A stretch of 64,000 bases of DNA from an uncultured delta proteobacterium (lineage in GTDB: Bacteria > Desulfobacterota > Binatia > Binatales > Binataceae): contig CAVQEQ010000004.1 of assembly GCA_963711565.1 (NCBI GenBank), forward strand, positions 576,001-640,000. Reading direction: 5' to 3'. The translations under genes and the position numbers were made by a program. Of the stretch, positions 44,812 through 64,000 are shown piece after piece (the first letter of the stretch is position 1; each line of letters starts with the position of its first letter). Below the pieces are notes generated by a model, which saw only the letters and a list, made by a program, of their open reading frames with translations, was not told the DNA's origin and searched no databases.

Positions 44812-45720
44812 ATGCCGAAAGTCTCGACGATCGTTGCTGTGTACAACGGCGCAGCAACCGTTAACCGCGCGCTTCGCAGCATCTTCGCCCAGACTTTCAC
44901 CGACAACGAAGTAGTCGTCGTCAACGACGGCTCGACCGACGACACCGCGTCGGTGCTGTCGCGCTACGGCGATCGAATCCGCGTCATCACGCAGCGGAAT
45001 CGTGGGCTGTCTGCCGCTCGCAACGCCGGTGTGCGCGCCTCGAGCGGCGAGTATGTCGCGTTCCTCGACGATGACGACGAGTGGATGCCCGAAAAACTTG
45101 TGCGATCCGTCCCCGTTCTCGACGCGGATCCTGGCTGCGCGCTCGTATACACTTTCGCCGTTAAAATCGACCCTCAGGGAGAGCTCATTGGCTCCCAGAG
45201 CTTGACAGACGGGCGACCAGACGGCATCGAGTCGCCAACAATGCAAGAGATGCTAACGCGGCCGTGGAACGTCGTGCCCAGCCAGTTCGTGGTGCGGCGC
45301 GATGTCTTCGAGCGATGCGGCGGATTCCACGAACGATTCATCACGTCGTGCGAGGACCTCTACTTCCTGCTGAACGCGCGCGAGTACGGCGCCTTCCGAT
45401 GCGTCCCCGAGCAGCTCGTGCGCAAGGAGACGCGCCCGCTGTATCCCAAGGCGCTTGAACGCGAGCCCGAGTGCGATCTCTTCGTCGAACTTGTCAGCGA
45501 GCGCTACGGCGCGTCCGCCGCCGGCTTCGTCCGGGAATTCCGGCGCGAGCGAGTCAAGGTCATGCGACATATGGCTCGCACTCTGATCGAGGAAGGCCGC
45601 CCGCGAGACGCGCGCAAATGCCTCGCTCGCGTGATGCATTACGAACCGCTGTCACCGAAGGCATACCGGCGATATTTGAAAACTTTTTTTTCCTCTCGCG
45701 CAAATGAAGTGGGTCCCTGA
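44812..45720 (+). CDS. Glycosyltransferase family 2
   Basis: VSTIVAVYN, NDGSTD, ARNAG, AFLDDDD. Confidence 0.92.
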   Translation: MPKVSTIVAVYNGAATVNRALRSIFAQTFTDNEVVVVNDGSTDDTASVLSRYGDRIRVITQRNRGLSAARNAGVRASSGEYVAFLDDDDEWMPEKLVRSVPVLDADPGCALVYTFAVKIDPQGELIGSQSLTDGRPDGIESPTMQEMLTRPWNVVPSQFVVRRDVFERCGGFHERFITSCEDLYFLLNAREYGAFRCVPEQLVRKETRPLYPKALEREPECDLFVELVSERYGASAAGFVREFRRERVKVMRHMARTLIEEGRPRDARKCLARVMHYEPLSPKAYRRYLKTFFSSRANEVGP

Positions 45721-45775
45721 CTTGTGCCGGGGACCCATACCAGACTGCCTGGTTACGTTGGAGAAGAAGTACTGT

Positions 45776-46282
45776 TCAATCGCTGGGCAGGAATAGGGTA
45801 CGGAAATAGTTCTGGGCGCCAGTCACTCCGCCAGTGGTATCAGCTGTCCAGCCAGTAATTTTCGCCTGGATCTCGAGTGTGAATGTGACATTTGCGCTAT
45901 TCGCATACGTTACATCCGAAATACCTGACCGACTAACACTCGTTTGGCTGTTCACCGGTGTAGTAGTCAGATCCCGCGCGAACTCATTGGTTCCATCGCT
46001 GACCCAAATCTCAATACCTTTCCCACCCGATAATGAAGACGGGGAAGTGATCGGGACAAAGTAGTCCACGTATACACGGCAAGGGCATCCGGTACTTGGC
46101 GCGGTCTCCATGATCGAATCGAGCGGTGTAGCCGTTGTGCCCACGCTGATGTCGCTCAGATAGTCGGAGCCCTGGTAGTTGCCGTCCCACAATTGTGCTC
46201 TGGCCAAAGCGGACAAAGACAGGACGGCGACCAACACCACTAGAAAAGACACTGTCTTGACGAAGAATCGCGCGATACGCAT
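45776..46282 (-). CDS. Exported beta-rich hypothetical protein (lower GC)
   Basis: Signal peptide ending ALARA; AGGAGG RBS; Ser/Thr-rich. Confidence 0.7.
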   Translation of the reverse strand: MRIARFFVKTVSFLVVLVAVLSLSALARAQLWDGNYQGSDYLSDISVGTTATPLDSIMETAPSTGCPCRVYVDYFVPITSPSSLSGGKGIEIWVSDGTNEFARDLTTTPVNSQTSVSRSGISDVTYANSANVTFTLEIQAKITGWTADTTGGVTGAQNYFRTLFLPSD

Positions 46283-46434
46283 GTCGAATCCTCCTAAGGT
46301 CTGTTAGTGGAAATTGACTTTGAGGAGTCACAAATAACAAAATGTGGGCGCACTGTCTAGTGACAATAAGTCAGCTTCTTACAACTGGGAGAGGTTCGTC
46401 CGCGTGCTTAAGAAAGTATTCGTCGCGATTTGCG

Positions 46435-47112
46435 CTATTCCGCGACGTACTCGACCATCGCCTGACGCCGCGGATGGCCCCAATCGCCGATGTATCTTGG
46501 ATTCCAGCCGCTTTTAACGCCGAAGTCTTCAACCGTAGCGCGCGGAAAGCGGAAGCTCCGGTGCGAATGCGATCGCGGTGACTGGTTCACGTGAGATTCG
46601 TCGATGAAGAAGGTCGCGTAGAAGCGTCCGCCGGGATTCATGAATCGCCGCAATTTTTCCAGACACAGCAGGATGTCGGACTCGGCGAGGTGGGTGAAGA
46701 GCGACTGCGCGATCGCGAAGTCCGGCCGCCTGGAGAATTTATCGAATTCGAAACGGTCGGAAATTACAAACTGCGGCGACTTGCGCCGCATCCGCTCCCG
46801 CCCCAGCTCCTGCTTGATTCCAACTTTGAGGAGCTGCTTTTCACGCTCGAGCCCCAGGTAATTCCCCTCGTCCAGATAGTCGATAAACTTCACTCCACCC
46901 CTCAAGGCACCGCATCCGATGTCGAGCAGAACATGCCCCGGCTTCAGTCCCATCTTGAGCATGAACTCGAACTGCAAGTCGCCAAGCGCGCCCCAATCGC
47001 CGCCGACGTATTGCCGATGCCCCAAAAGCCAGATGCCGAGCCGGCCGTCAGGCTTTCCAAGCGCTACAAAAGCTCTCGCCTTTAACTTCTCAATCATCGC
47101 GAGGCGGCGCAT
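46435..47112 (-). CDS. Class I SAM-dependent methyltransferase
   Basis: LLDIGCGALRGG, YLGLE, AQSLFTHL, PGGRFYATF. Confidence 0.9.
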   Translation of the reverse strand: MRRLAMIEKLKARAFVALGKPDGRLGIWLLGHRQYVGGDWGALGDLQFEFMLKMGLKPGHVLLDIGCGALRGGVKFIDYLDEGNYLGLEREKQLLKVGIKQELGRERMRRKSPQFVISDRFEFDKFSRRPDFAIAQSLFTHLAESDILLCLEKLRRFMNPGGRFYATFFIDESHVNQSPRSHSHRSFRFPRATVEDFGVKSGWNPRYIGDWGHPRRQAMVEYVAE

Positions 47113-47180
47113 CTCAACTACTCGATGATGCGCGACCGCCTCCTTTCTGCGTCGCCGACTCGGTCAGGCGCCCGGGCTGA

Positions 47181-47318
47181 CTATCGCGCGCCGGATGCGT
47201 GTGTCTCGGGCGTGATTTCAGCACCCGCCGGCTCCGGCGCTGACGACATCGAGCCATAGCCGGCTGCGTTGTTGTTGCGCCTGTTCACCAGCGCTTCGAT
47301 GCGGTCTTTTCCTTTCGC
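47181..47318 (-). pseudogene. 3'-end relic of a second UDP-sulfoquinovose synthase gene
   Basis: Translates [29 protein letters not shown]...GAR*, versus the intact gene's C-terminus [29 protein letters not shown]...RAR*; no start codon or upstream homology. Confidence 0.8.
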
Positions 47319-47492
47319 ACAGTCACACTGAGAGTTAAGTTTGAACGGTACGGAGAGTCAAGCTTGAACGCCAGGACTGAATTGAAGTCTTCAACTGGCG
47401 CATCGACTCCGTGCGAGGTAGATAGAGATGTGCGGTTTGCTAAAGAAACGAGGGCGGAGTACCGCGTCTGACCGTCGCCTGAGCTCCCGCTG

Positions 47493-48422
47493 ATGCCGCT
47501 CGTCTCCGTAATAATTCCGGTTTACAACGGCGCCGCGACGATCGGTCGTGCGCTCAAGAGCGTCTTCGATCAAACTTTCACCGATTACGAAATCGTTGTC
47601 TGCGACGACGGCTCGACCGACGACACTTCCGCGCTGCTGGCGGGATACGGCGATCGAATCCGGGTGCTCCGGCAGGCCAACCGTGGGTTCCCCGCTGCGC
47701 GCAACGCCGCCGTCGCTGCCAGCCGTGGCGAGTTGATCGCCCTGATAGATCACGACGACCAATGGCTCCCGCGAAAGCTCGAGGTTCAGGTCGCCGCTCT
47801 TCAAAATGACCGCGGCGCCGTGCTCGTGTACTCGGACGTGACTGTGGTCAACGAAGCGGGCGACGAGTCGCGCGCCTCGCCGGTCGCGGCCGCCACCGCG
47901 CACGCGCCCTCGATGGACGAGATGCTCGCGCGGCTGTGGCCGATCATGCCGAGCACGGTCGTGATGCGGCGTGACGCCTTCGACCGCACGGGTGGATTCT
48001 GCGAGAGCCTTGGCCAGGACCTGGATTTCTGGCCGCTGATCCGGGAGCAGGGCGGCTTCATCTACCTGCCCGATCGCCTGGTGCGGTTCACCTTCGGCCA
48101 GCTCTATCCGAAAGTCCTCAAGCGGGACTTCGGTCCGGATGGGTTTGTCGATTTAATTCGCTCCCGCTACGGCGCGCGCGCCGACGGGCTGGTCGCGGAC
48201 TTCATCCGGCACCGGGTGCGGATGATCGCCAACGCCGGCGTGATCGAGATGAGCCGCGGCAACATGGAAGGCGCGCGCCAATGCTTCATCCGGGTGCTGA
48301 AGTACGATCCGCGCCACGTGAAAAGTTATTTGCGCATCGCGCGAACCTACCTGCCCGCACCAATCCGGCGCGCGCTGGGAGGTAAAGCCTCGCGCGAACA
48401 TCGCATTGTCGGAGAAGAATAG
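47493..48422 (+). CDS. Glycosyltransferase family 2
   Basis: VSVIIPVYN, DDGSTD, ARNAA, LIDHDD. Confidence 0.92.
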   Translation: MPLVSVIIPVYNGAATIGRALKSVFDQTFTDYEIVVCDDGSTDDTSALLAGYGDRIRVLRQANRGFPAARNAAVAASRGELIALIDHDDQWLPRKLEVQVAALQNDRGAVLVYSDVTVVNEAGDESRASPVAAATAHAPSMDEMLARLWPIMPSTVVMRRDAFDRTGGFCESLGQDLDFWPLIREQGGFIYLPDRLVRFTFGQLYPKVLKRDFGPDGFVDLIRSRYGARADGLVADFIRHRVRMIANAGVIEMSRGNMEGARQCFIRVLKYDPRHVKSYLRIARTYLPAPIRRALGGKASREHRIVGEE

Positions 48423-48677
48423 CCTCCCCTTGTCCGAGGGGAGGTCGCCGCGCGCCGAAGGAGCGCGGCGGGAGAGGTGCAACGCTGGCCGGTGCGACCG
48501 CGCTTGCTGTTTGTAGCTTGAAGCCAGCAGGTGGTGCCGCTGTCCGGCGGCGGCTTGTGCGTCTAGCAATTGTGGTTAGACGAGCCGGGCGGGGTGCGAT
48601 GTCGAGCGTTGCACCCCACCCGGCGACACCGCGTTTCACGCGGCTTACGCCGACCTCCCCTCGGACAAGGGGAGGTT
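48423..48677. repeat. REPIN/MITE-like element: inverted pair of palindromic arms
   Basis: Left arm CCTCCCCTTGTCCGAGGGGAGGTCG...GGTGCAACGCT; right arm AGCGTTGCACC...CGACCTCCCCTCGGACAAGGGGAGG; lies between convergent genes. Confidence 0.8.
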
Positions 48678-48709
48678 AGGATTCGGACCGAGGAGCGCTT
48701 CCTGCACGC

Positions 48710-49999
<1,290 letters not shown>

Positions 50000-50962
50000 T
50001 TATTCCTGATACGCGCGATCAGATCGAGCGCGGCGCGCCTTGCCGCCGGACAGGCTCCGCGCCAGCCGATGCGGCAAAAACGTGCGCATCCAGCGCAGGT
50101 AGTTCTTGAGCCGGTATGGATCGACCCTGATAGCGCGCGCAAACGCCGCCCGCGCGCGCGGACGGTCGCCGTCGCGCAGCGCCTTGAGGCCGATCGTCGC
50201 GAGGATACTGCGCGGCGCCCGCATGCGCGCATCGACCAGCGGCGCCGCCGAAACGCCGTAGCGCTCCTGCAAGTACGCCTCGAAAACGTGCAACGCCTTC
50301 GAGTAGTCGGGGAGCCGCTTGAGCTGCTTCGGAAACCATGCGAACCGCCACGTGATCAGCGGCTCGTCGATATAGCCGAACGGCCCCTGCTCGCGCATCT
50401 TGATCCAGAAATCTGTGTCCTCGAAGCGGAAGCTCGCGCCCTTCAACGCGTCGCGATAGCCGCCACATGCTTCGTACGCCGAGCGACGGACCAGGGCAGC
50501 GCTCGGCATGATCGGCCACAGCTGCGTCAGCAGTTCCTTCAGTGACGGCGCATGATTGAAGCCCTTGCCCACCAGCGAGGTGTCGAGCGCGACGCTCTCG
50601 CTGTCAGCCAGGGCGCAATTGCAGTACACGAGTGACAGCACAGGGTCACTGTCGAGCGCCGCCGCGCTACGCTCGAGGAATTGCGGCGCCCAGACGTCGT
50701 CGGCGTCGAGGAAGGCGAGGTACTCGCCCGACGAATTGCGCGCGCCATTGTTGCGTCCGGCAGCCGGCCCACTGTTGGGTTGCTCGATCAGGCGCACTCG
50801 GTCACCGAACTGTTTAATGATTGTGACAGTCGGGTCGGTCGAGCCGTCATCGACGCAGATTATTTCGAAATCCTGGAGGGTCTGGGCGAGCACGCTCTCG
50901 ACCGTGCTGGCGATAGTCGCGGCCGCATTGTAAGCGGGAATAATTACAGAAACGCGAGGCAC
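50000..50962 (-). CDS. Glycosyltransferase family 2
   Basis: VSVIIPAYN, DDGSTD, GRNNG, AFLDADD; WPIMPS shared with the GT2 at 47493. Confidence 0.92.
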   Translation of the reverse strand: MPRVSVIIPAYNAAATIASTVESVLAQTLQDFEIICVDDGSTDPTVTIIKQFGDRVRLIEQPNSGPAAGRNNGARNSSGEYLAFLDADDVWAPQFLERSAAALDSDPVLSLVYCNCALADSESVALDTSLVGKGFNHAPSLKELLTQLWPIMPSAALVRRSAYEACGGYRDALKGASFRFEDTDFWIKMREQGPFGYIDEPLITWRFAWFPKQLKRLPDYSKALHVFEAYLQERYGVSAAPLVDARMRAPRSILATIGLKALRDGDRPRARAAFARAIRVDPYRLKNYLRWMRTFLPHRLARSLSGGKARRARSDRAYQE

Positions 50963-51079
50963 GATTTGATCGGACTCGGACGGAAGCCCTCGCGACAGGT
51001 TACACGGCTGGGGGCAGCCTGCTCAACGGGCACGAGCCGAAGGAGAGCGACGGGCGAGGTGGACCGCGGGCAGGTGCGA

Positions 51080-51320
51080 CCGCATGTAGTTGTGCTGCTA
51101 TCGGGCGGCGGCGTTGGTGTCTCTGCATTTGCGATTAGACGAGTGGGAGTGGTGACCTGTCAGGCGTTGCACCCCACCCGCCGCGCTCCTTTGGCGCGCG
51201 GCGACCTCCCCTCGGACAAGGGGAGGTTAGGATTGGCGCGACCCACGTCGCTTCTTGACGCTGGGTGCAGGGGTCACCCCTGCCCAAGGAAGTGTGAAAC
51301 CCAAGGTGGGTTTCACATTC
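51080..51320. repeat. Second partial copy of the 48.4-48.7 kb element plus additional hairpins
   Basis: GCGTTGCACCCCACCCG...CGACCTCCCCTCGGACAAGGGGAGGTTAGGATT matches about 48607-48683, with weaker similarity further upstream; hairpins GCAGGGG-TCA-CCCCTGC and GTGAAACCC-AAGGT-GGGTTTCAC follow. Confidence 0.75.
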
Positions 51321-51338
51321 GATTGATTCCTGCTCGGC

Positions 51339-52523
51339 CTACGCGCGGCGGGCGGTTGGCTTGCGGAATGTCCGATACGTACGGCCTTCGGCCAGGCCGA
51401 ACCTGTTCAGCATCCGGTAGACCGTGTAGCGCGATACACCCAGCAGCTCGGCTGCGCGATGGCAATTGCCCTCGGTCGCCTGCAACGCCCGAATCAGCGC
51501 GAGCTTTGAAGCCTCACGGATTACGGCGTCGAGCGAGTAGGGCCACTCCTTTGCGGCGCTGTCGCCCGCGCCCTCAACCAGGTCGAGCGCGCCATTTGGG
51601 AGTATCGCATCGACCGGCACGCCGACGGCTTCCGGGGTCGCATCGTCGTGCTGAAAGGGTAGGTCGTCGATATCAATCCGGTCGGTCTCGGTCATCAGGA
51701 CCGCGCTCTCGATAGCATGGCCGAGTTCGCGCACGTTACCGAGCCATTGATTGGCGCATAACGCGTCAAGGGCGGCGCGCGATACTTCTTTTACGTTCTT
51801 GCCGAACAGCCGGTTGTAGTGCTCGATAAAATGGGCGACGAATGCCGGGATTGCCTCACTCCGTTCGCGAAGCGGCGGAACCACGATCGCTGCCGCGTTA
51901 AGCCGGTAGTACAGATCGTCGCGAAATTGACCCGCCTTGACCATCGCACGCAGGTCACGATTGGTGGCAGCCACCAGCCGAATATCAACCGAGTAGCAGC
52001 GCGACGAACCGACCGGCTGGATCTCATGAGTCTCGACCGCGCGCAACAGCTTGGGCTGCAGGCGCAGCGGGAGCTCGCCGATTTCGTCCAGGAAAAGCGT
52101 TCCGCCGTTCGCCGAACGGAAATAGCCAAGCGAATCTTCGCGGGCGTCGGTGAAAGCGCCGCGCACGTGGCCGAAGAGCTGCGATTCCGCCAGCGTATCG
52201 ACCAGGTTCGAGCAATTGAAGGTCACGAACGGGCCGCCTGGTGCCGAGCCCAGCGTATGCAGCGCTCGGGCTACGAGCTCCTTGCCGGTCCCGGATTCGC
52301 CGTGAATCAGGACGGTTGCTTTGTATGGACTCAAGCGTGAAATGGTTTTCAGTAGCTTGCGCACTTGCGCCGACCGCACCACCATCCCACCAACCCGCTC
52401 CGACCCATGCGCAAGATGCTCGAGGCTGAACCACTCGCACGCGGCTGCCGCTGGTTCGGCGCGAAGATTATTCATCGCAGCCGCGACCGGCGTTCCGTTC
52501 GCCGAGTACTCTTGAAGGCGCAT
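51339..52523 (-). CDS. Sigma54-dependent enhancer-binding protein (AAA+ plus Fis HTH) lacking a receiver/sensor domain
   Basis: HGESGTGKE, ESQLFGHVRGAFTDA, LFLDEIGE, LVAATNRDL, FRDDLYYRL, GNVREL; C-terminal GNCHRAAELLGVSRYTVYR. Confidence 0.92.
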   Translation of the reverse strand: MRLQEYSANGTPVAAAMNNLRAEPAAAACEWFSLEHLAHGSERVGGMVVRSAQVRKLLKTISRLSPYKATVLIHGESGTGKELVARALHTLGSAPGGPFVTFNCSNLVDTLAESQLFGHVRGAFTDAREDSLGYFRSANGGTLFLDEIGELPLRLQPKLLRAVETHEIQPVGSSRCYSVDIRLVAATNRDLRAMVKAGQFRDDLYYRLNAAAIVVPPLRERSEAIPAFVAHFIEHYNRLFGKNVKEVSRAALDALCANQWLGNVRELGHAIESAVLMTETDRIDIDDLPFQHDDATPEAVGVPVDAILPNGALDLVEGAGDSAAKEWPYSLDAVIREASKLALIRALQATEGNCHRAAELLGVSRYTVYRMLNRFGLAEGRTYRTFRKPTARRA

Positions 52524-57271: not shown

Positions 57272-58570
57272 CTAGCTGCCTCGATCACCACACTCGTCAG
57301 GACCGGAGCTTTGCGGAGCGCTCCGCAGGAGGCGCGGGCCGTATTGTAGCGCCATCCGGAACGGCCGGATGACCCAGTAGAGCGGGAACAGCAATTTGGG
57401 CAGCCGGATGAGTTCATAGTCGCCCATCGTCGGCGCCAGCATCCGGCGGACGACGTAGTTCATTCGCGCGCGCGTGCCTTCGATCGAGCGGAGCGGAACC
57501 ATCCACGGATCGAAGCGCGACTGTCCGGCCCCGGTTCCGCTGAACAGCCGGCTCGCGACGCGCCTTGATAACGATTCCACGGCGCGGTCTCGGCGAGCTA
57601 TCGCGACGACATCGTCCGGAATGGGCCCGCCGACCAGATCGTGCGCCAGGAGGATGCCGGTCAGGAACATCCTGCGGCTGCCGAGCGCGGTCGCCTCGTC
57701 GAGCGTCGCCATCAGATCGATTGCCGGCCGCGCGCGAATAGTTTCCGCCACGTCGCAAATCGATCCGAGCTTGACCCATCCATGCTTTGCGGCGTGGACG
57801 CAGATGTACAGCAGCGAGTCTTCCGGCGCGATAGCGGTAACGGCGCCGAACTCGAGTTCAACCGGTTGCGCGCGCCGCCAGAAGGATTCCTCGGCCGGGG
57901 CAAAGCGGAACGAGCGCGGCGTGATCTTCCAATGAACGTCCACGGCGCCCATCCCGCGAGCCGCAAAGAAGGCGTCCTCACACTCCTGGAAGTAGCCGGT
58001 CGCCAGTCCCTCGCGCCGGGTGTGTGGCGACAGATACCCCTCGACGGTGAGTATTTCGGCGACCCCCGGCAGATCCGGCTCGTGCACCAGGATATCCAGA
58101 TCGACGAACTGGCGCAGGTCGGTCGATCCGTACGCCATCGCGGCCAGCACTGGACCCTTGAAGGTGACCGCCTCGATTCCCGCCTGCTTCATCAGACCCA
58201 TCAGGCGCACGAGCTCGGCGATCAGATGGCCGTTGTAAAGCGCGACCAACTGCCACTGCGTTCGCATCTTTGCCATCGCCTCCGCCGGCGCTACGGCGGG
58301 GCATTCGAGACTCAGGTATCGGTGCACCAGCGGGAGAACCGCATGGCGTTTGGCGATATCGATGACGCCGTCCCAACTGCGCACGCGCGCCGCGAGAGCG
58401 GACGCCCGAGTCGTGCGCGCTGTTGTCGCTACAGTCGTCGCGCAGCACAACACCAGAGCCGCTTCGGGAGGCAAGTCGGAATGTTCGAGGAGAGCGTCGG
58501 ATCCCACTGAATTGTCACAGTAGTCCGAGGCGAAAGCGGGGCCAAGAGCGTTCGGCGCTCGTATCGACAC
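57272..58570 (-). CDS. Nucleotidyltransferase (NTP_transf_5-like), of the type found in lasso clusters
   Basis: W...AKRHAVLPL, FKGPVLA, LRQFVDLDILV, VDVHWK, YICVHAAKH.W..L..ICDV. Confidence 0.88.
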   Translation of the reverse strand: MSIRAPNALGPAFASDYCDNSVGSDALLEHSDLPPEAALVLCCATTVATTARTTRASALAARVRSWDGVIDIAKRHAVLPLVHRYLSLECPAVAPAEAMAKMRTQWQLVALYNGHLIAELVRLMGLMKQAGIEAVTFKGPVLAAMAYGSTDLRQFVDLDILVHEPDLPGVAEILTVEGYLSPHTRREGLATGYFQECEDAFFAARGMGAVDVHWKITPRSFRFAPAEESFWRRAQPVELEFGAVTAIAPEDSLLYICVHAAKHGWVKLGSICDVAETIRARPAIDLMATLDEATALGSRRMFLTGILLAHDLVGGPIPDDVVAIARRDRAVESLSRRVASRLFSGTGAGQSRFDPWMVPLRSIEGTRARMNYVVRRMLAPTMGDYELIRLPKLLFPLYWVIRPFRMALQYGPRLLRSAPQSSGPDECGDRGS

Positions 58571-58855
58571 TCGCCGGCGAGTCTGCAGCCGCGAGTCGAG
58601 CGGATAACAAACTGTAGGATTTTGCGTCTCTCGGCTCGTCTAACCATGAAATTCGAGTAAGAAAGTGCTCTATGGGGGTTATAAAACCGCTTGACGTAAA
58701 CAGGGCAAAGTGGAATGATGCCCGCTGCTAATAAACCACAGTCAAATCTGTCAGGGCACCTCTTAGACAAAGCGTTAAGATTAAGAGTTACCAAAACGTT
58801 ATTTTATTTGATTGGCAGTGATAAAACGAAAGAAAAGCGAAGGAGCTAACAAGAG

Positions 58856-59809
58856 ATGAAGGCAATTAAACGAGGTCTGTTAACTAGGATAGCGGTTCCT
58901 GGCGTATCGCTGCTTGCTTTGGTCGGGCTTGTTTTGAGTGGGCCGCAGGCGGCTTGGGCCAAGCACCATTCAAAAGACTCAGAAGATGGGCCTGATCCCA
59001 CGGCTGTCACGGCATGTGGGACGCTCTCCGGGGGCGATACGATCTACTATCTTACGGCTGACCTCACCGAGACCGGAACGGGCACTTGCATTACTCTGTC
59101 GGGCACCGGCAGCGCGTTGCTCCTCAATGGTCACACCATCTCGGGTCCGGGCGGCAGTTCGACCGGCGATGGCATCCATATCACGGGCACCTCGGATGTG
59201 ATCGAAGGGTTTAATGGTACCGTGCAGGGGTTTGAGATTGGGATCATCGATACCGGCGGCGGCAGTGTTGGCGACGACTTCAACGTCACAGATAATGTAA
59301 CCGGGCTGGAATTGAATTCGACCGCGACAACCAGGTTTGTAAACTTCAGTTCCTTTGATAACACTGGAAATGGGGTTCTTATCGATGATTGCGGCGAACA
59401 CTGCTCGGTTCTGGACTTTTCAAGTACCGACAATGGCGCCAACGGGGTGCTGATAGAAGGCAGCACCTTCCCCTTGGCCGATGTATTCGTCACTACGGGT
59501 AACACCGGTGCCGGAGTCTTCGTGGGCGGTACGGGGACTGGCCCCAGAAATACTCACGCCGTTATAGCTGACGCGTTTACCTCGGCGCCGGTCGGAGTCT
59601 CGGACAACACCTCGTATGGGATTGTGATAGGAACTAGTGACGCCACCTCCAACGACTTCGTGACGACCGTTGAGGCCGACGACAACCTCATAGATCTCTA
59701 CGACGAGAACTCCACCTGTGGCGATGATCTCTGGTTCAACAACAGCTTTACCTCTTCCAAGGCCGGCACGGTGACAAGTCCTGCCTGCATCGGCGGAATC
59801 GGAAGCTGA
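58856..59809 (+). CDS. Exported right-handed parallel beta-helix protein
   Basis: Signal peptide ending AAWA; YYLTADL...CITL...LLLNGHTISG and repeated DNxGxGV turns; AAGGAG RBS. Confidence 0.8.
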   Translation: MKAIKRGLLTRIAVPGVSLLALVGLVLSGPQAAWAKHHSKDSEDGPDPTAVTACGTLSGGDTIYYLTADLTETGTGTCITLSGTGSALLLNGHTISGPGGSSTGDGIHITGTSDVIEGFNGTVQGFEIGIIDTGGGSVGDDFNVTDNVTGLELNSTATTRFVNFSSFDNTGNGVLIDDCGEHCSVLDFSSTDNGANGVLIEGSTFPLADVFVTTGNTGAGVFVGGTGTGPRNTHAVIADAFTSAPVGVSDNTSYGIVIGTSDATSNDFVTTVEADDNLIDLYDENSTCGDDLWFNNSFTSSKAGTVTSPACIGGIGS

Positions 59810-59834
59810 GGCATCTTACTCGCTTTGCCGGAAG

Positions 59835-59863
59835 CCTCCGCGGATCCACGGGATCCGCGGAGG
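59835..59863. terminator. Strong hairpin between convergent genes (putative terminator)
   Basis: CCTCCGCGGATCC-ACG-GGATCCGCGGAGG, a 13-bp perfect stem. Confidence 0.55.
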
Positions 59864-59947
59864 ACCGGCCGACGAGATCGCTACCTGTCTGCTGACCGGC
59901 TTTTTGACCGATACCCACGAACAGAATTCTGAATCTTTGTGACTGGA

Positions 59948-60934
59948 CTACCGGGCCGGACGTTCGCTCAAATCGTGCAGGACGGCCTGTCTGACATCGG
60001 CGAGCGCGGAAAAATCGTCTGGCACGACCAGCCGCTTGACTCGCACTTGCTCCGCCACGCGAGAGAGGAAATGGAACTGCCGCTGCAGCATTGCGGTGTC
60101 CGTAGTATCGAACCTGTAGGCCGCCTTGACCAGTCCTATCAGCGCTTCCCCCGAAGCGAGTTCTTCGATCAGAACGCCGGCTGAGCGTTTGCCTGCTCGC
60201 CCGCGCTGGAGCAAATAGATGCGCGCGAGCCGGCGTGAAGTCGAGCAGAAGTCGGCGCGCCGGGAATAATCCCTTAGGCGAGATTTCGTCGTGTAGTGCG
60301 CGACCGGCTTCAGATTCCGTGAACTTGCGCCAAGCGCCCGCACTGAATCGTTCCACAGCCGCAAGCCCGGATAACCGGGCAGCGTCCTGATAGCCGCGCC
60401 GTCGGAAAGCGCGAGGCAATCATCGCAGACCAGCGGATAGCCCGAGAGGACGAAGCTGGCGGCGAGCGTAGATTTACCCGACCCTGCAGGCCCCGTGAAT
60501 GCACAGACGCCCCTGCGTGTTGCGACGGCAGTAGCATGCAGCGCCTCACTCCCGCGCAGGTTTACCACCAGCGGAAGCACCTGATCGATCAGAAGATGGC
60601 GGATTGTCTTCAAGCTGACGCCGGCGCGCGCGTTGCCGCAAATTACTTGGCGCCCGGCGTTGTCAATTACGAAGTCGGCGATATCAGAGAAGGAGAGTAC
60701 GTAACCGTCGGGAATCTTGCCGCAACGAAGCCACGTCTTGCCACCCGGCGGTCGCGAATGCCGGAACCATCGCGGATGGAGGCGTAAGAGTTCAGCGCGC
60801 TCGCCAAGAGTCGCGCGAACCGCAGACCCGACTGACGATACCCGGGGTGCCGAAAGCTCGAGAAGCGGAATGTCGGTAACGATTCGAAGCCCGTAGGCTT
60901 GCTGCTGGAAGGTGCGGATCCTCGTCTTACTCAA
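59948..60934 (-). CDS. HPr-kinase-like P-loop kinase (lasso-peptide kinase type)
   Basis: AYGLRI, LHATAV, GPAGSGKSTLA, VCDDCL, PGLRLW. Confidence 0.85.
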   Translation of the reverse strand: MSKTRIRTFQQQAYGLRIVTDIPLLELSAPRVSSVGSAVRATLGERAELLRLHPRWFRHSRPPGGKTWLRCGKIPDGYVLSFSDIADFVIDNAGRQVICGNARAGVSLKTIRHLLIDQVLPLVVNLRGSEALHATAVATRRGVCAFTGPAGSGKSTLAASFVLSGYPLVCDDCLALSDGAAIRTLPGYPGLRLWNDSVRALGASSRNLKPVAHYTTKSRLRDYSRRADFCSTSRRLARIYLLQRGRAGKRSAGVLIEELASGEALIGLVKAAYRFDTTDTAMLQRQFHFLSRVAEQVRVKRLVVPDDFSALADVRQAVLHDLSERPAR

Positions 60935-60962
60935 CTAAATTACGGGCACAGCCTCGCTTGGC

Positions 60963-60990
60963 GAGGTACCCGTCATGAGGTACCCGTCAT
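60963..60990. repeat. 14-bp perfect tandem duplication
   Basis: GAGGTACCCGTCAT x2, between the precursor and kinase genes. Confidence 0.8.
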
Positions 60991-61115
60991 AAGGAACGAA
61001 ACCGTCTATCCGTGAAATGCCGAACTCGCCAGCGTTCACACCCAGCGCAAGATTGGTAATCGCGTGGACGTCGGAAGCTTTTTCGTACCTAAAATTTCCA
61101 AAGAGCCGGAAATTG

Positions 61116-61253
61116 CTAGCCGGGCTTCTTTAATGCGGCGCCATCAGTCGGAGTATGGGAACCGCCCGACTCGGTCAGCTTGGCGACGCTGCCATACTCT
61201 ATTAGGCGAGGACGAACATAGAGTCGCTTTGCTGGCTCTTGTTTCTTTTCCAT
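61116..61253 (-). CDS. Lasso peptide precursor
   Basis: MEKKQEPAKRLYVRPRLIEYGSVAKLTE|SGGSHTPTDGAALKKPG: exact YxxPxLxxxGxxxxxT leader motif, Thr at -2, core Ser1 with Asp9. Confidence 0.88.
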   Translation of the reverse strand: MEKKQEPAKRLYVRPRLIEYGSVAKLTESGGSHTPTDGAALKKPG

Positions 61254-61303
61254 CCGTTCTTCAGTGCTTCTGGTCATCCTCAACCCCCAACGTAGTGTGA
61301 CCA

Positions 61304-61333
61304 AACATAGCAACAGCAGCGATTGGATGTCAA
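61304..61333 (-). promoter_or_regulatory. Sigma70-like promoter for the lasso precursor
   Basis: Minus strand TTGACA-18 bp-TATGTT, with TG upstream of the -10. Confidence 0.5.
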
Positions 61334-61542
61334 GAAGACAGGTATCGAGATCATCATTATCGTTTTTCCCGGACAATCCATTTGTCCTAAAAAATCGCGG
61401 CGCGCACCTTTCAAGAAAATTCAGACGAGAATCCGGGGACTTGACATAGACCTAAAGTTCCAGATAGTCGCCCGCTCAGTTACGGTAGAGTTCGCGCCAG
61501 CTTCCGGCGTGAGCACGGTGAGGTGGGCGAGGGTGACAGGCG

Positions 61543-63264
61543 ATGCATGAACAAAACACCGATTCGCCTGGCGCCGCAGTCCCCGTCGCACCGATGCTCA
61601 TCTGCGTTGCGGCAGGATTGGCGCTCGCACTGACTCCGGCCCTGATTTGGCGAGTGAAAACCGGAGTTTGGGTGTGTCTGGCACAGCCGGAAATCCTCTA
61701 CTATCTGCAGATTGCGGGAGAGGCTTATTACAACCATCTCGGGCATATCAGCGATCCGACGATTGCCGGTGGGGTCTCATTTTACCCCTGGCTGCCTTTT
61801 GTTCCCGTTGTTTTTGTCGTGCACGTTTTCGGACTCAGTCTTTTCTCGGTCGCGCTGATTTGGTCGATTTTCGCCGGCGCGGGGGTTGGTGCGGTTTTGT
61901 ACCTGACATTTTGGCGGTTTTTGCGCCAACGTTGGATGGCGGCCGGGTTGACCATATTCTGCATGTCGGACTTCGGGTTTTGCGGTCGTTTCGTATTTCT
62001 TTTGCAGTTGAGGCAGTTGGCGATTGCGCTGGTCATCCATCCAGTTGGGCGTCTCATAACGATTCCCTTCGCTCAATGGCGCGCTCCGGATCCGTCGCTA
62101 GACCTGCCGTTTCTATTTTTCCAGATTCTCGCCGTATCGAACGCGCGCGAGCGTCCGCGGCGCCTGAACCTGTGGATATCAGGGGCAGCATTCGGGCTGC
62201 TCTTCTATGTCTTTTTCTACCTGTGGACGATGGTGGCGGTGGCCCTGGTCATCGCACTGCTGCTCGATCCCGCCGGCCGCAAAGCTTACGGTTGGACGCT
62301 GTTGATCGGCTCGGCCATCGGCATCCCGGATTTGGTTCTGAGCCTGCACTCGAGAGCGGCGGCGATTAACGAAGGGGTCGCGCGACTGGCGTTGTTTGTT
62401 CCCGCTGCGTCAAAGGCGCGTGACTATGATCTCGCCTTCCCGATCCTGACGGCAGTGTTTTTCGCCTTTGCAGGTTTCTGGATCTGGAAAACTCGCAGAT
62501 TCGAGTTGATCTATCTATTAAGCCTGGTGATCGCTGGATTGGTACTTGGCTACAGCCGCATGGTTACGCATGTTTTTTTTCATGAGTATCACTACATCTG
62601 GCTATGGTGGTCGATTCGACTCGTATTGGGACTGATCGTGGTCGCTGCTATCGCGGAACGCCGGATATCGCCGCGTGCGTGGCATGGGCCGGCGTTCGCG
62701 GCGTTTGCGCTGCTCTACCTGATCGGCGGAATCTACTTGAACGCTATCGACGTAACCCGCACTCGCTGGCGTAATCGACAGATACAGAACTTCGTCAGTT
62801 ACCGCACGCAGCGGATGGCGCCGGGTGTCTCTCCGCTGGTCCCGCGGTCGGTGCTCGCCGGATCGCAAGAGTTTTGCGAGTTGGCGGCGGTCGCCGAGAA
62901 TCAGCGTCAGCTCGCCGGGTGGATTTTGCCCCTGAGCGTGGCGCTCGATAATTCAGGTTGGGAGTCGAGAGCCGCCCTCAACGCCTATCTGAATGGAGTC
63001 AAGCGTGCAGACTTCGCCCGAGCGACTTCAGAAGAGGTGAAGGACGACTACTGGTTCGCCGAACAGCAACAGCCGCAACTGATGGAAGATTTCATGCGGA
63101 AATTTGATGAGGTGACGCGAGATCCCGACAAATTCATCCGCGCCCTCGATGTGCGCTATGTTGCGCTGCCTGCCGATCAGTCGCCGCCGCCCTACGTGGC
63201 GTCGCAATTCCGTATCCTCCAGCCGGGTCCCTACTGGCGCATCTGGCAAATCCAGCAACCGTGA
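61543..63264 (+). CDS. Polytopic membrane protein with soluble C-terminal domain (possibly GT-C-like)
   Basis: Many hydrophobic segments, a loop after TM1 (PEILYY...SDPT) and a C-terminal extramembrane domain ending DVRYVAL...WRIWQI. Confidence 0.7.
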   Translation: MHEQNTDSPGAAVPVAPMLICVAAGLALALTPALIWRVKTGVWVCLAQPEILYYLQIAGEAYYNHLGHISDPTIAGGVSFYPWLPFVPVVFVVHVFGLSLFSVALIWSIFAGAGVGAVLYLTFWRFLRQRWMAAGLTIFCMSDFGFCGRFVFLLQLRQLAIALVIHPVGRLITIPFAQWRAPDPSLDLPFLFFQILAVSNARERPRRLNLWISGAAFGLLFYVFFYLWTMVAVALVIALLLDPAGRKAYGWTLLIGSAIGIPDLVLSLHSRAAAINEGVARLALFVPAASKARDYDLAFPILTAVFFAFAGFWIWKTRRFELIYLLSLVIAGLVLGYSRMVTHVFFHEYHYIWLWWSIRLVLGLIVVAAIAERRISPRAWHGPAFAAFALLYLIGGIYLNAIDVTRTRWRNRQIQNFVSYRTQRMAPGVSPLVPRSVLAGSQEFCELAAVAENQRQLAGWILPLSVALDNSGWESRAALNAYLNGVKRADFARATSEEVKDDYWFAEQQQPQLMEDFMRKFDEVTRDPDKFIRALDVRYVALPADQSPPPYVASQFRILQPGPYWRIWQIQQP

Positions 63265-63281
63265 CTATGGACACAGCTCGC

Positions 63282-64000
63282 TTAGCTGCTTTCGGTCAGG
63301 TGCTTGAAGGGCTCGCTGATGCCCAGGAACACCACACTCAGCCAGAGTTCGACCGCAAGCACCATCCACAGATCGCAGACGTTGTTCATGTAAGAGGGGT
63401 CGCCGCGCGAGTACGCAGCGGCCATCGAGCGGTACCAGCCCCGAACTACTTCTCCTTCTACCCATCCGTTACTGACACAGTTGAGGCGATCGAACAGGCG
63501 CTCGCCACCATTTTCGATCAGCGCCATTGCGTGTAGTTCGGTCAGGCCGGCCTTGTCGGGCCGCATCCGCACCCGCTCCGGCAAAATCCCGCGCATCGAT
63601 CCGCGCAGCACGAACTTGGCAAAGTTTCCGCGACAAACCTGGCTGTAAGGGAGCGCGAACGCAAACTCCATCACGCGGCGGTCCAGCAGCGGATGGCGTC
63701 CCTCGAGTCGAAAACGCGATGTTCCGCGTTGATTGAGCTCGAGCACGTAAGGGAAGAATCCGGACGCGTAAACTCTGTACACGGCCTGCTGCGCGAAACT
63801 GCGGCATCGCGGCACCGGCGGTCGGGTCGCGAGCCGCTCCGATAGCTTTGTCCGAGCAGCGAATGCGCGCGACACCATCGGGTTGGGCTCCGGAGGATTC
63901 CGCCATCGTCTGATCACGGACTTGAGTCCTTCCGGCAGGAGTGGCGAGACTCCGTACCGCCGAAGAACCCTGGTGTAGCCCGGAAAGTCGGGCGCCCCGG
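63282..64000 (-). CDS. Lasso cyclase (asparagine-synthetase-like), C-terminal part; runs off the right edge
   Basis: Frame is open to 64000; RHPLLDRRVMEFAFALP...KFVLRGSMRGILPERVRMRPDK...LWMVLAVELWL. Confidence 0.88.
   Translation of the reverse strand, partial: GAPDFPGYTRVLRRYGVSPLLPEGLKSVIRRWRNPPEPNPMVSRAFAARTKLSERLATRPPVPRCRSFAQQAVYRVYASGFFPYVLELNQRGTSRFRLEGRHPLLDRRVMEFAFALPYSQVCRGNFAKFVLRGSMRGILPERVRMRPDKAGLTELHAMALIENGGERLFDRLNCVSNGWVEGEVVRGWYRSMAAAYSRGDPSYMNNVCDLWMVLAVELWLSVVFLGISEPFKHLTESS

Follow-up and report, generated by a model that had tools for sequence, protein, structure and literature searches.

The right end of the 64,000-nucleotide window analysed here (positions 576,001 to 640,000 of contig CAVQEQ010000004.1 from an uncultured member of the Binataceae, or G000:C4:576001-640000, G000 being the genome analysed) carries part of a gene cluster that continues beyond the window edge and that, judged from its sequence, is a complete and real lasso-peptide cluster, of class II by gene content. 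Family profile searches yielded one full minus-strand set of six lasso genes, encoding a precursor peptide (A), an RRE protein (B1), a leader peptidase (B2), a lasso cyclase (C), an HPr-kinase-like peptide kinase (K) and an NTP_transf_5 nucleotidyltransferase (N), arranged from right to left in the order B2, B1, C, A, K, N (Table 1). The reading that we favour, with a probability of about two in three, is that K targets the serine at position 4 of the core peptide, so that the ring would carry a phosphate, which N would possibly cap.

The four genes named in the original prediction (cyclase, precursor, kinase and NTP_transf_5 gene) were all recovered on the minus strand by family matches, although the region as a whole does not lie on that strand: the minus-strand run is broken by two plus-strand genes, one encoding 573 amino acids between C and A and one encoding 317 amino acids between K and N. 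The window ends inside C: it contains N, K, the precursor gene and the 3′ part of C, and most of the cyclase gene, up to G000:C4:641219, follows just to the right together with B1 and B2, where the two B genes had been expected. Each of the six genes is present as a single copy in the genome, all are open and full length, and the catalytic motifs are kept in K, N, B2 and C.

The precursor scores 22.3 bits against the lasso_leader_L3 profile NF033521 (cut-off 19) and shows exactly the leader register first described for it, with Tyr(-17), Pro(-14), Leu(-12), Gly(-8) and Thr(-2). The description of the core was likewise confirmed: it has 17 residues, no Cys, a C-terminal Gly and a tail devoid of Ser, Thr and Tyr, and its Asp9 lies in the interval, core positions 7-9, where an acidic residue is expected of a class II lasso peptide. 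The spacing from the leader and the conservation of Asp8/9 lead us to predict closure between Ser1 and Asp9; lasso peptides starting with Ser1 exist (the caulonodins).

The precursors of close relatives were collected from a clade defined on a quick kinase tree of 79 rows, from which 12 duplicates, fragments or fusions had been excluded; in this tree the close kinases form 32 rows, about 61-100% identical, with 100% support. Thirty-six close-clade loci gave 30 distinct precursors; four others of the clade (L108, L119, L125 and L143), with none in the recovered DNA, were left uncounted. The search pattern demanded an acidic residue at core position 7-9 and Thr or Ser at position -2; within these limits, all close relatives found have Asp8/9 and all 30 precursors have Thr(-2). 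One precursor with a long, probably frameshifted tail (L069) was dropped from the tail counts. None of the 29 intact precursors ends in Ser or Thr, so the family has no C-terminal kinase target, and the missing C-terminal Ser that had been pointed out for this core is a family trait. Six close-clade precursors have no Ser, Thr or Tyr anywhere in the tail. Read-through into a longer tail ending in Ser was considered and rejected, given the clear TAG stop and the tails of close relatives, which have 6-13 residues and no terminal Ser.

The opposite end of the core is where hydroxyl residues are retained. Among the 30 close-clade precursors, position 1 is Ser in 29 and Ala in one, position 2 is Gly in 27, position 3 is Gly in 28 and Ser in two, and position 4 is Ser in 17, Thr in 11 and Gly in two. 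Both Gly4 precursors are those with Ser3, which leaves a hydroxyl at position 3 or 4 in 30 out of 30. Positions 5-8 are variable (Ser/Thr 13-27%), and ring positions from 5 onward have 20% Ser/Thr overall. The hydroxyl at position 4 is encoded by TCN-Ser in 11 precursors, AGY-Ser in six and Thr in 11; mapped on a FastTree phylogeny of the kinases, this position shows about 12 residue changes with just two hydroxyl losses, and position 1 a single change, to Ala. Such frequent exchange between Ser and Thr without drift to Ala or Pro is the pattern expected under selection for a hydroxyl at position 4. Since this hydroxyl is found at position 4 in both 8- and 9-residue rings, the site appears to be counted from the leader, as expected for a leader-guided enzyme. 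The residues His5, Thr6 and Thr8, also listed originally as possible ring targets together with Ser1 and Ser4, were rejected, being unconserved (His5 in 2/30, Thr6 in 7/30, Thr8 in 2/21). A ring residue thus stays the most likely target, and the retention of a hydroxyl at position 4 across two kinds of Ser codon and Thr points to Ser4 as the likely kinase site, with Ser1 as its rival.

An action of K on Ser1, or on several ring hydroxyls, rather than on Ser4 alone seems unlikely to us. Ser1, an internal residue of the precursor, is present in 29 of the 30 close-clade precursors and is retained by both Gly4 precursors, but it is always encoded by TCN and never replaced by Thr or AGY-Ser, and L126 combines Ala1 with Ser4. 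Moreover, distant clades swap Thr1 and Ala1 yet retain another ring hydroxyl, and a phosphate beside the ring-closing amine would probably hinder cyclisation.

The kinase itself carries a full catalytic set (H133, G148, G151, G153, K154, S155, D171 and D172), in which H133, K154, D171 and D172 form the His-Lys-Asp-Asp kinase signature. Its best NCBIfam match is HprK_rel_A (E 5.7e-9, 35.5 bits against a cut-off of 200), and the scores for the HPr-rel-A system (TIGR04352/TIGR04353) lie below the cut-offs for this kinase as well as for the PqqD protein (19.3 against 35 bits). K follows A within 250 bases in all 36 close-clade loci showing a precursor; among 32 distant rows, 21 have K no more than 400 bases after A. 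Kinase matches were found in 24 of the 37 genus genomes searched, in 5 of 24 other members of the class and in 41 metagenome loci; in each of the 24 genus genomes the kinase is accompanied by a lasso-type cyclase match. Among the 13 kinase-negative genus genomes, eight have no cyclase match, three have weak ones, which are probably ordinary asparagine synthetases, and two have strong ones (one of them with a precursor at a contig end). The adjacency of A and K and the co-occurrence of kinase and cyclase make it likely that K belongs to the peptide pathway.

A non-peptide or cell-envelope substrate for K and N, with the lasso peptide left unmodified, had been offered in the original prediction as an option. 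The best family label of K, though weak, is HprK-related kinase A, glycosyltransferase genes lie 6-13 kb to the left of the cluster, which itself contains a GT-C gene, and N stays 71-78% identical even where C and K are at 36-43% and has an orthologue apart from lasso genes in four genomes, all of which would suit such a substrate. We nonetheless consider it improbable: the proximity of kinase and precursor in 36/36 close-clade loci weakens it, as do the selection for a hydroxyl at core position 3/4, the absence of a kinase match from the eight genus genomes without a cyclase match, and the fact that kinases of this family in clusters for ribosomally synthesised and post-translationally modified peptides are reported as peptide kinases.

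Ring phosphorylation in a cluster with a kinase and a nucleotidyltransferase but no C-terminal Ser, proposed originally as a new regiochemistry, is already published. BsfK of Bradymonas sediminis FA350 phosphorylates ring Ser3 of the precursor BsfA, which ends in Asp; it accepts the S3T substitution, needs the leader and is accelerated by B1 (PMC10368454). The bsf cluster consists of BsfA/B1/B2/C/D/K/N, and the function of BsfN is so far without evidence (Duan et al., 2023; PMC10368454). Like bsf, the present cluster combines split B1/B2 genes with an HPr-kinase-like K and a nucleotidyltransferase, and its precursor lacks a C-terminal Ser and has a conserved Ser/Thr early in the ring; the motif of BsfK (H148-G163-G166-G168-K169-S170-D186-D187; PMC10368454) has the same spacing as that of K. 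It differs from bsf in having Thr(-2) rather than Ile(-2), Ser1 rather than Gly1, Asp9 rather than Asp8 and a predicted site at position 4 rather than 3 (Gly3 being found here and in 28/30 close-clade precursors), and in having no ABC transporter. A search with the BsfA motif gave no match, and locus L167 stands in for the Bradymonas cluster; from matches and inspection by eye, it comprises C, A, a transporter-like frame, B1, K, B2 and an N-like frame, with Val(-2) and Thr3. The cluster described here likely works like bsf, and the kinase comparison does not imply a shared lineage.

The paeninodin and pseudomycoidin clusters (PadeK, ThcoK, SyanK, PsmK and PsmN), as far as the available portions of PMC9266682 and PMC6993621 go, resemble ours in the C-A-K linkage, the His-Lys-Asp-Asp kinase, the NTP-transferase partner and the Thr(-2) leader. 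In clusters of this type the kinase site is, by the rule given in these portions, the C-terminal Ser, which is missing here and in 29/29 intact close-clade precursors, and PsmN is described as required for hexosylation of the phosphorylated lasso peptide (available text of PMC6993621). In the LppK/LppN system, according to the accessible part of PMC13381572, LppK phosphorylates core S3 of linear polyphosphorylated peptides of Bacillota; this RRE-linked HprK-like kinase also acts near the core N-terminus and is accompanied by an NTP transferase, but the system has no cyclase and a signal-peptidase-like protease, unlike ours with C and B2. In the available portions of PMC13352647 and PMC12639078, the only phosphorylation mentioned for lasso peptides is C-terminal. 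Our literature search, with subscription journals mostly outside its coverage, found nothing on lasso peptides in Binatota.

Several observations weigh against the Ser4 reading. Thirty-six more distant loci gave 32 precursors, of which three end in Ser and five in Thr; their conserved ring hydroxyl lies at position 3, 5 or 6, and two of the 32 have no hydroxyl at ring positions 2 onward. Within the close clade, Ser1 is nearly as conserved as the hydroxyl at position 4, positions 1-3 are conserved too, so that preferences of the peptidase or cyclase could explain part of the core conservation, and Gly4 in two precursors shows that the register is not strict. The residue changes were counted on a weakly resolved FastTree phylogeny of kin that are not independent, and the position counts are drawn solely from kinase-linked precursors. 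BsfK is reported as strictly specific for position 3, and the native bsf cluster gave no mature lasso (PMC10368454). K is only 26% identical to the bsf-type stand-in kinase of L167 and does not group with it, L167 being a long branch left unplaced. Finally, N-like genes (about 35%) occur in G004, G034 and G066, all of them without a cyclase or B2 match. The deep kinase tree is poorly resolved and does not reject a grouping of the four C-terminal-Ser kinases together (p-AU 0.149). Kinase matches were also found in 14 plasmid records, five of which were opened: four gave precursors ending in Ser, as in the known type, and the fifth gave precursors ending in Cys. The kinases from plasmids whose precursors end in Ser are 23-27% identical to K and fall outside the close clade.

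If the Ser4 reading is correct, K would act on the linear precursor bound to B1 and phosphorylate its core Ser4; cleavage by B2 would then remove the Thr(-2) leader, C would form the Ser1-Asp9 ring with the phosphate on it, and N would possibly add a nucleotide or a hexose to the ring phosphate, the latter step being the least certain; the order of these steps, like the site and the ring, is inferred. Dehydration to dehydroalanine after phosphorylation was considered, and no lyase-like gene was seen between N and B2. It is also improbable that the precursor is phosphorylated and cut but yields a product that is not stably threaded (linear or branched-cyclic), or that the pathway is decaying. 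This would accord with the short tail, which has no aromatic plug and only Leu and Lys, with the stops or frameshifts seen in several relatives, with the report that unmodified pseudomycoidin is unthreaded (available portion of PMC6993621), and with the lack of an ABC exporter among the cluster genes in family searches of the locus and its right flank; an MFS transporter gene is located beyond B2. On the other hand, all six reading frames are intact, the catalytic motifs of K, N, B2 and C are preserved, and Asp8/9 is conserved among the close relatives found with a pattern that demanded an acidic residue at core position 7-9.

Copies of N that are 72-78% identical are found in 25 genus genomes, and in 24 of these they are accompanied by a strong cyclase match. 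In six loci (L075-L077, L093, L095 and L096), N is 71-78% identical and the adjoining C and K are only 36-43% identical; these loci, running from the MFS gene to N, hold differing C-A-K cassettes between flanks that are 71-92% identical, which suggests a cassette-exchange hotspot beside a fixed N. A fixed N beside swapped cassettes would be expected of an enzyme that recognises the phosphate rather than the peptide sequence, but also of an N with a role apart from the peptide.

The genes B1, B2, C, K and N are all at one locus here, unlike in 7 of 12 close genus relatives. In G014, G008, G005, G065, G035, G002 and G061 (loci L065, L066, L068-L071 and L073), the 20-kb locus has no B2 and each genome has one B2 elsewhere; a single B2 is found in 31 of 33 positive genus genomes, some of them with two lasso clusters, which suggests that B2 acts in trans in such relatives. 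A more elaborate version of the Ser4 reading, in which N caps the ring phospho-Ser4 with a nucleotide or hexose, the exchangeable C-A-K cassette plugs into a fixed, phosphate-recognising N, and B2 works in trans in many relatives, is tentative, and we would put the odds against it. A ring phosphodiester of this kind was not found described in the literature examined.

Because B1, B2, C, K and N lie together, the cluster should be expressible as one unit. It could show how NTP_transf_5 enzymes modify phosphorylated lasso peptides, be it by transferring a hexose, by nucleotidylation or in a host-dependent way, and whether a ring-phosphorylated core cyclises, a result that the bsf study did not obtain. 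The contrast between Ser4 and Ser1 would make it a precise and cheap probe of the kinase site.

Table 1. Features of the lasso-peptide locus; coordinates refer to the window unless prefixed with C4 (contig).
Feature	Position	Strand	Basis or remark
N, NTP_transf_5 nucleotidyltransferase, 432 aa from first GTG	57272..58570	minus	PF14907, E 1.3e-53
317-aa protein, hydrophobic N-terminus	58856..59809	plus	Atlas features NosD/Beta_helix 0.96
K, HPr-kinase-like peptide kinase, 328 aa	59948..60934	minus	HprK_rel_A match and catalytic motif
A, lasso precursor	61116..61277	minus	likely 53 aa, 36-aa leader and 17-aa core; NF033521
Core peptide	61119..61169	minus	predicted Ser1-Asp9 macrolactam and 8-residue tail
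Core Ser4 codon	61158..61160	minus	predicted phosphorylation site
45-aa reading of precursor	starts 61253	minus	alternative downstream Met
Sigma-70-like promoter match	61304..61333	minus	10/12, extended -10; 27 bases before 53-aa start
573-aa membrane protein, GT-C glycosyltransferase fold	61543..63264	plus	model and fold matches
C, lasso cyclase, 645 aa	63282..64000 (3′ part); C4:639282-641219 (whole)	minus	Asn_synthase, NF033535
B1 (RRE), 94 aa	C4:641266-641550	minus	PqqD PF05402, E 1.5e-16
B2, leader peptidase, 163 aa	C4:641659-642150	minus	Cys78 and His113; NF033537, PF13471

The precursor had been taken as a 45-residue peptide. Of the 30 close-clade precursors, 29 have a Met located 19-24 residues ahead of the leader Tyr, and the remaining one is truncated at a contig end. 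The Met of the shorter reading is found in this genome only; the ATG at 61277 is therefore the favoured start and the peptide is likely 53 residues long. The putative promoter upstream of this start is supported solely by its position, the scan having returned four sites where 3.7 are expected by chance. When all six frames of the whole genome were scanned with a permissive leader pattern, 21 matches emerged, of which inspection by eye left one credible precursor, A itself. RNA-library contigs from two studies (61063-61272 and 61206-61284) overlie the precursor gene, and contigs also cover the 317-aa gene in all three RNA-library runs; none covers N, C or most of K. The runs contained just 5-7% of the sequence words and a 20-kb control stretch likewise has scattered short RNA contigs (run X1), so that the coverage of the precursor is a weak hint only.

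The cyclase matches NF033535 with an E-value of 4.5e-135 and 451.8 bits, below a cut-off of 525 that no match in 47 genus genomes reaches, and carries the motif SGGLDSS at residue 264. B2 is above the cut-off of NF033537 and matches Transglut_core3 (PF13471) with an E-value of 6.5e-22. N has a DxD-type motif at residues 157-159; most of its orthologue matches begin at residues 2-20, and its true start may lie about 18 codons downstream of the first GTG.

Of the two interrupting genes, the 317-aa one has no Pfam or NCBIfam match and likely encodes a secreted right-handed beta-helix. Its copies, 38-78% identical, adjoin the kinase gene in 12/12 close-clade genus loci; this gene diverges faster than its neighbours and is triplicated in L067:4983-8690. 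For the 573-aa protein, a single-sequence fold with a predicted local distance difference test score (pLDDT) of 46 was set aside in favour of a model built from 62 sequences (pLDDT 90), whose best fold matches are AftA, STT3/PglB and DPY19 (E 1e-6 to 1e-4, TM about 0.5). It is unlikely to be a dedicated lasso glycosyltransferase, since GT-C enzymes act outside the cytoplasm and no more than 2 of 13 close-clade genus loci carry the gene. Its 18 genus match rows include seven located within or next to lasso loci. Relatives of the protein are labelled Candidatus Binatus sp. and Binataceae, and the best Atlas clusters are mostly Binatota, which makes Candidatus Binatus the probable host. The nearest outside relatives (60-65%; L151-L154 and L161) lie between two genes that we take, by eye, to be proB and proA, G026 has a tandem arrangement, and others stand among glycosyltransferase-like genes. 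The gene is likely a passenger insertion.

In most relatives, the slot between C and A holds a PRMT-like methyltransferase gene, of which this genome has none. The encoded protein (L068:8593-9729, plus strand, and relatives) is an S-adenosylmethionine-dependent methyltransferase with PrmA and PRMT_C domains. A Met is present in the tail of all 16 close-clade precursors accompanied by this gene and of none of the nine without it, five precursors of unclear or broken status being excluded; gene and tail Met show about six changes on the kinase tree, and some distant loci carry the gene but no Met. These patterns hint that the enzyme may perform a Met-directed methylation.

To the left of the cluster, the region 44812-52523 of the window encodes family 2 glycosyltransferases, a methyltransferase, an NAD-dependent epimerase and a sigma-54 activator, and is a probable envelope-polysaccharide region. 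Among other lasso loci, unusual first core residues (Thr, Asn, His, Met, Gln, Trp and Arg) are predicted in a standard leader register for L084-L087, L089, L091 and L094, and likewise for L097, L098, L100, L128, L129 and L133. The sister clusters L078-L090, L095, L098 and L100 encode PhyH dioxygenases, JmjC and 2-oxoglutarate oxygenases, a GT41 glycosyltransferase, small methyltransferases and a TPR protein; L079 has three cyclase copies, and two kinases occur in L080 and L081. A lasso-like cluster on a Bacillus thuringiensis plasmid (L145:2011-4530) has three Cys-containing precursors that end in Cys, adjoining an HPrK-like gene.

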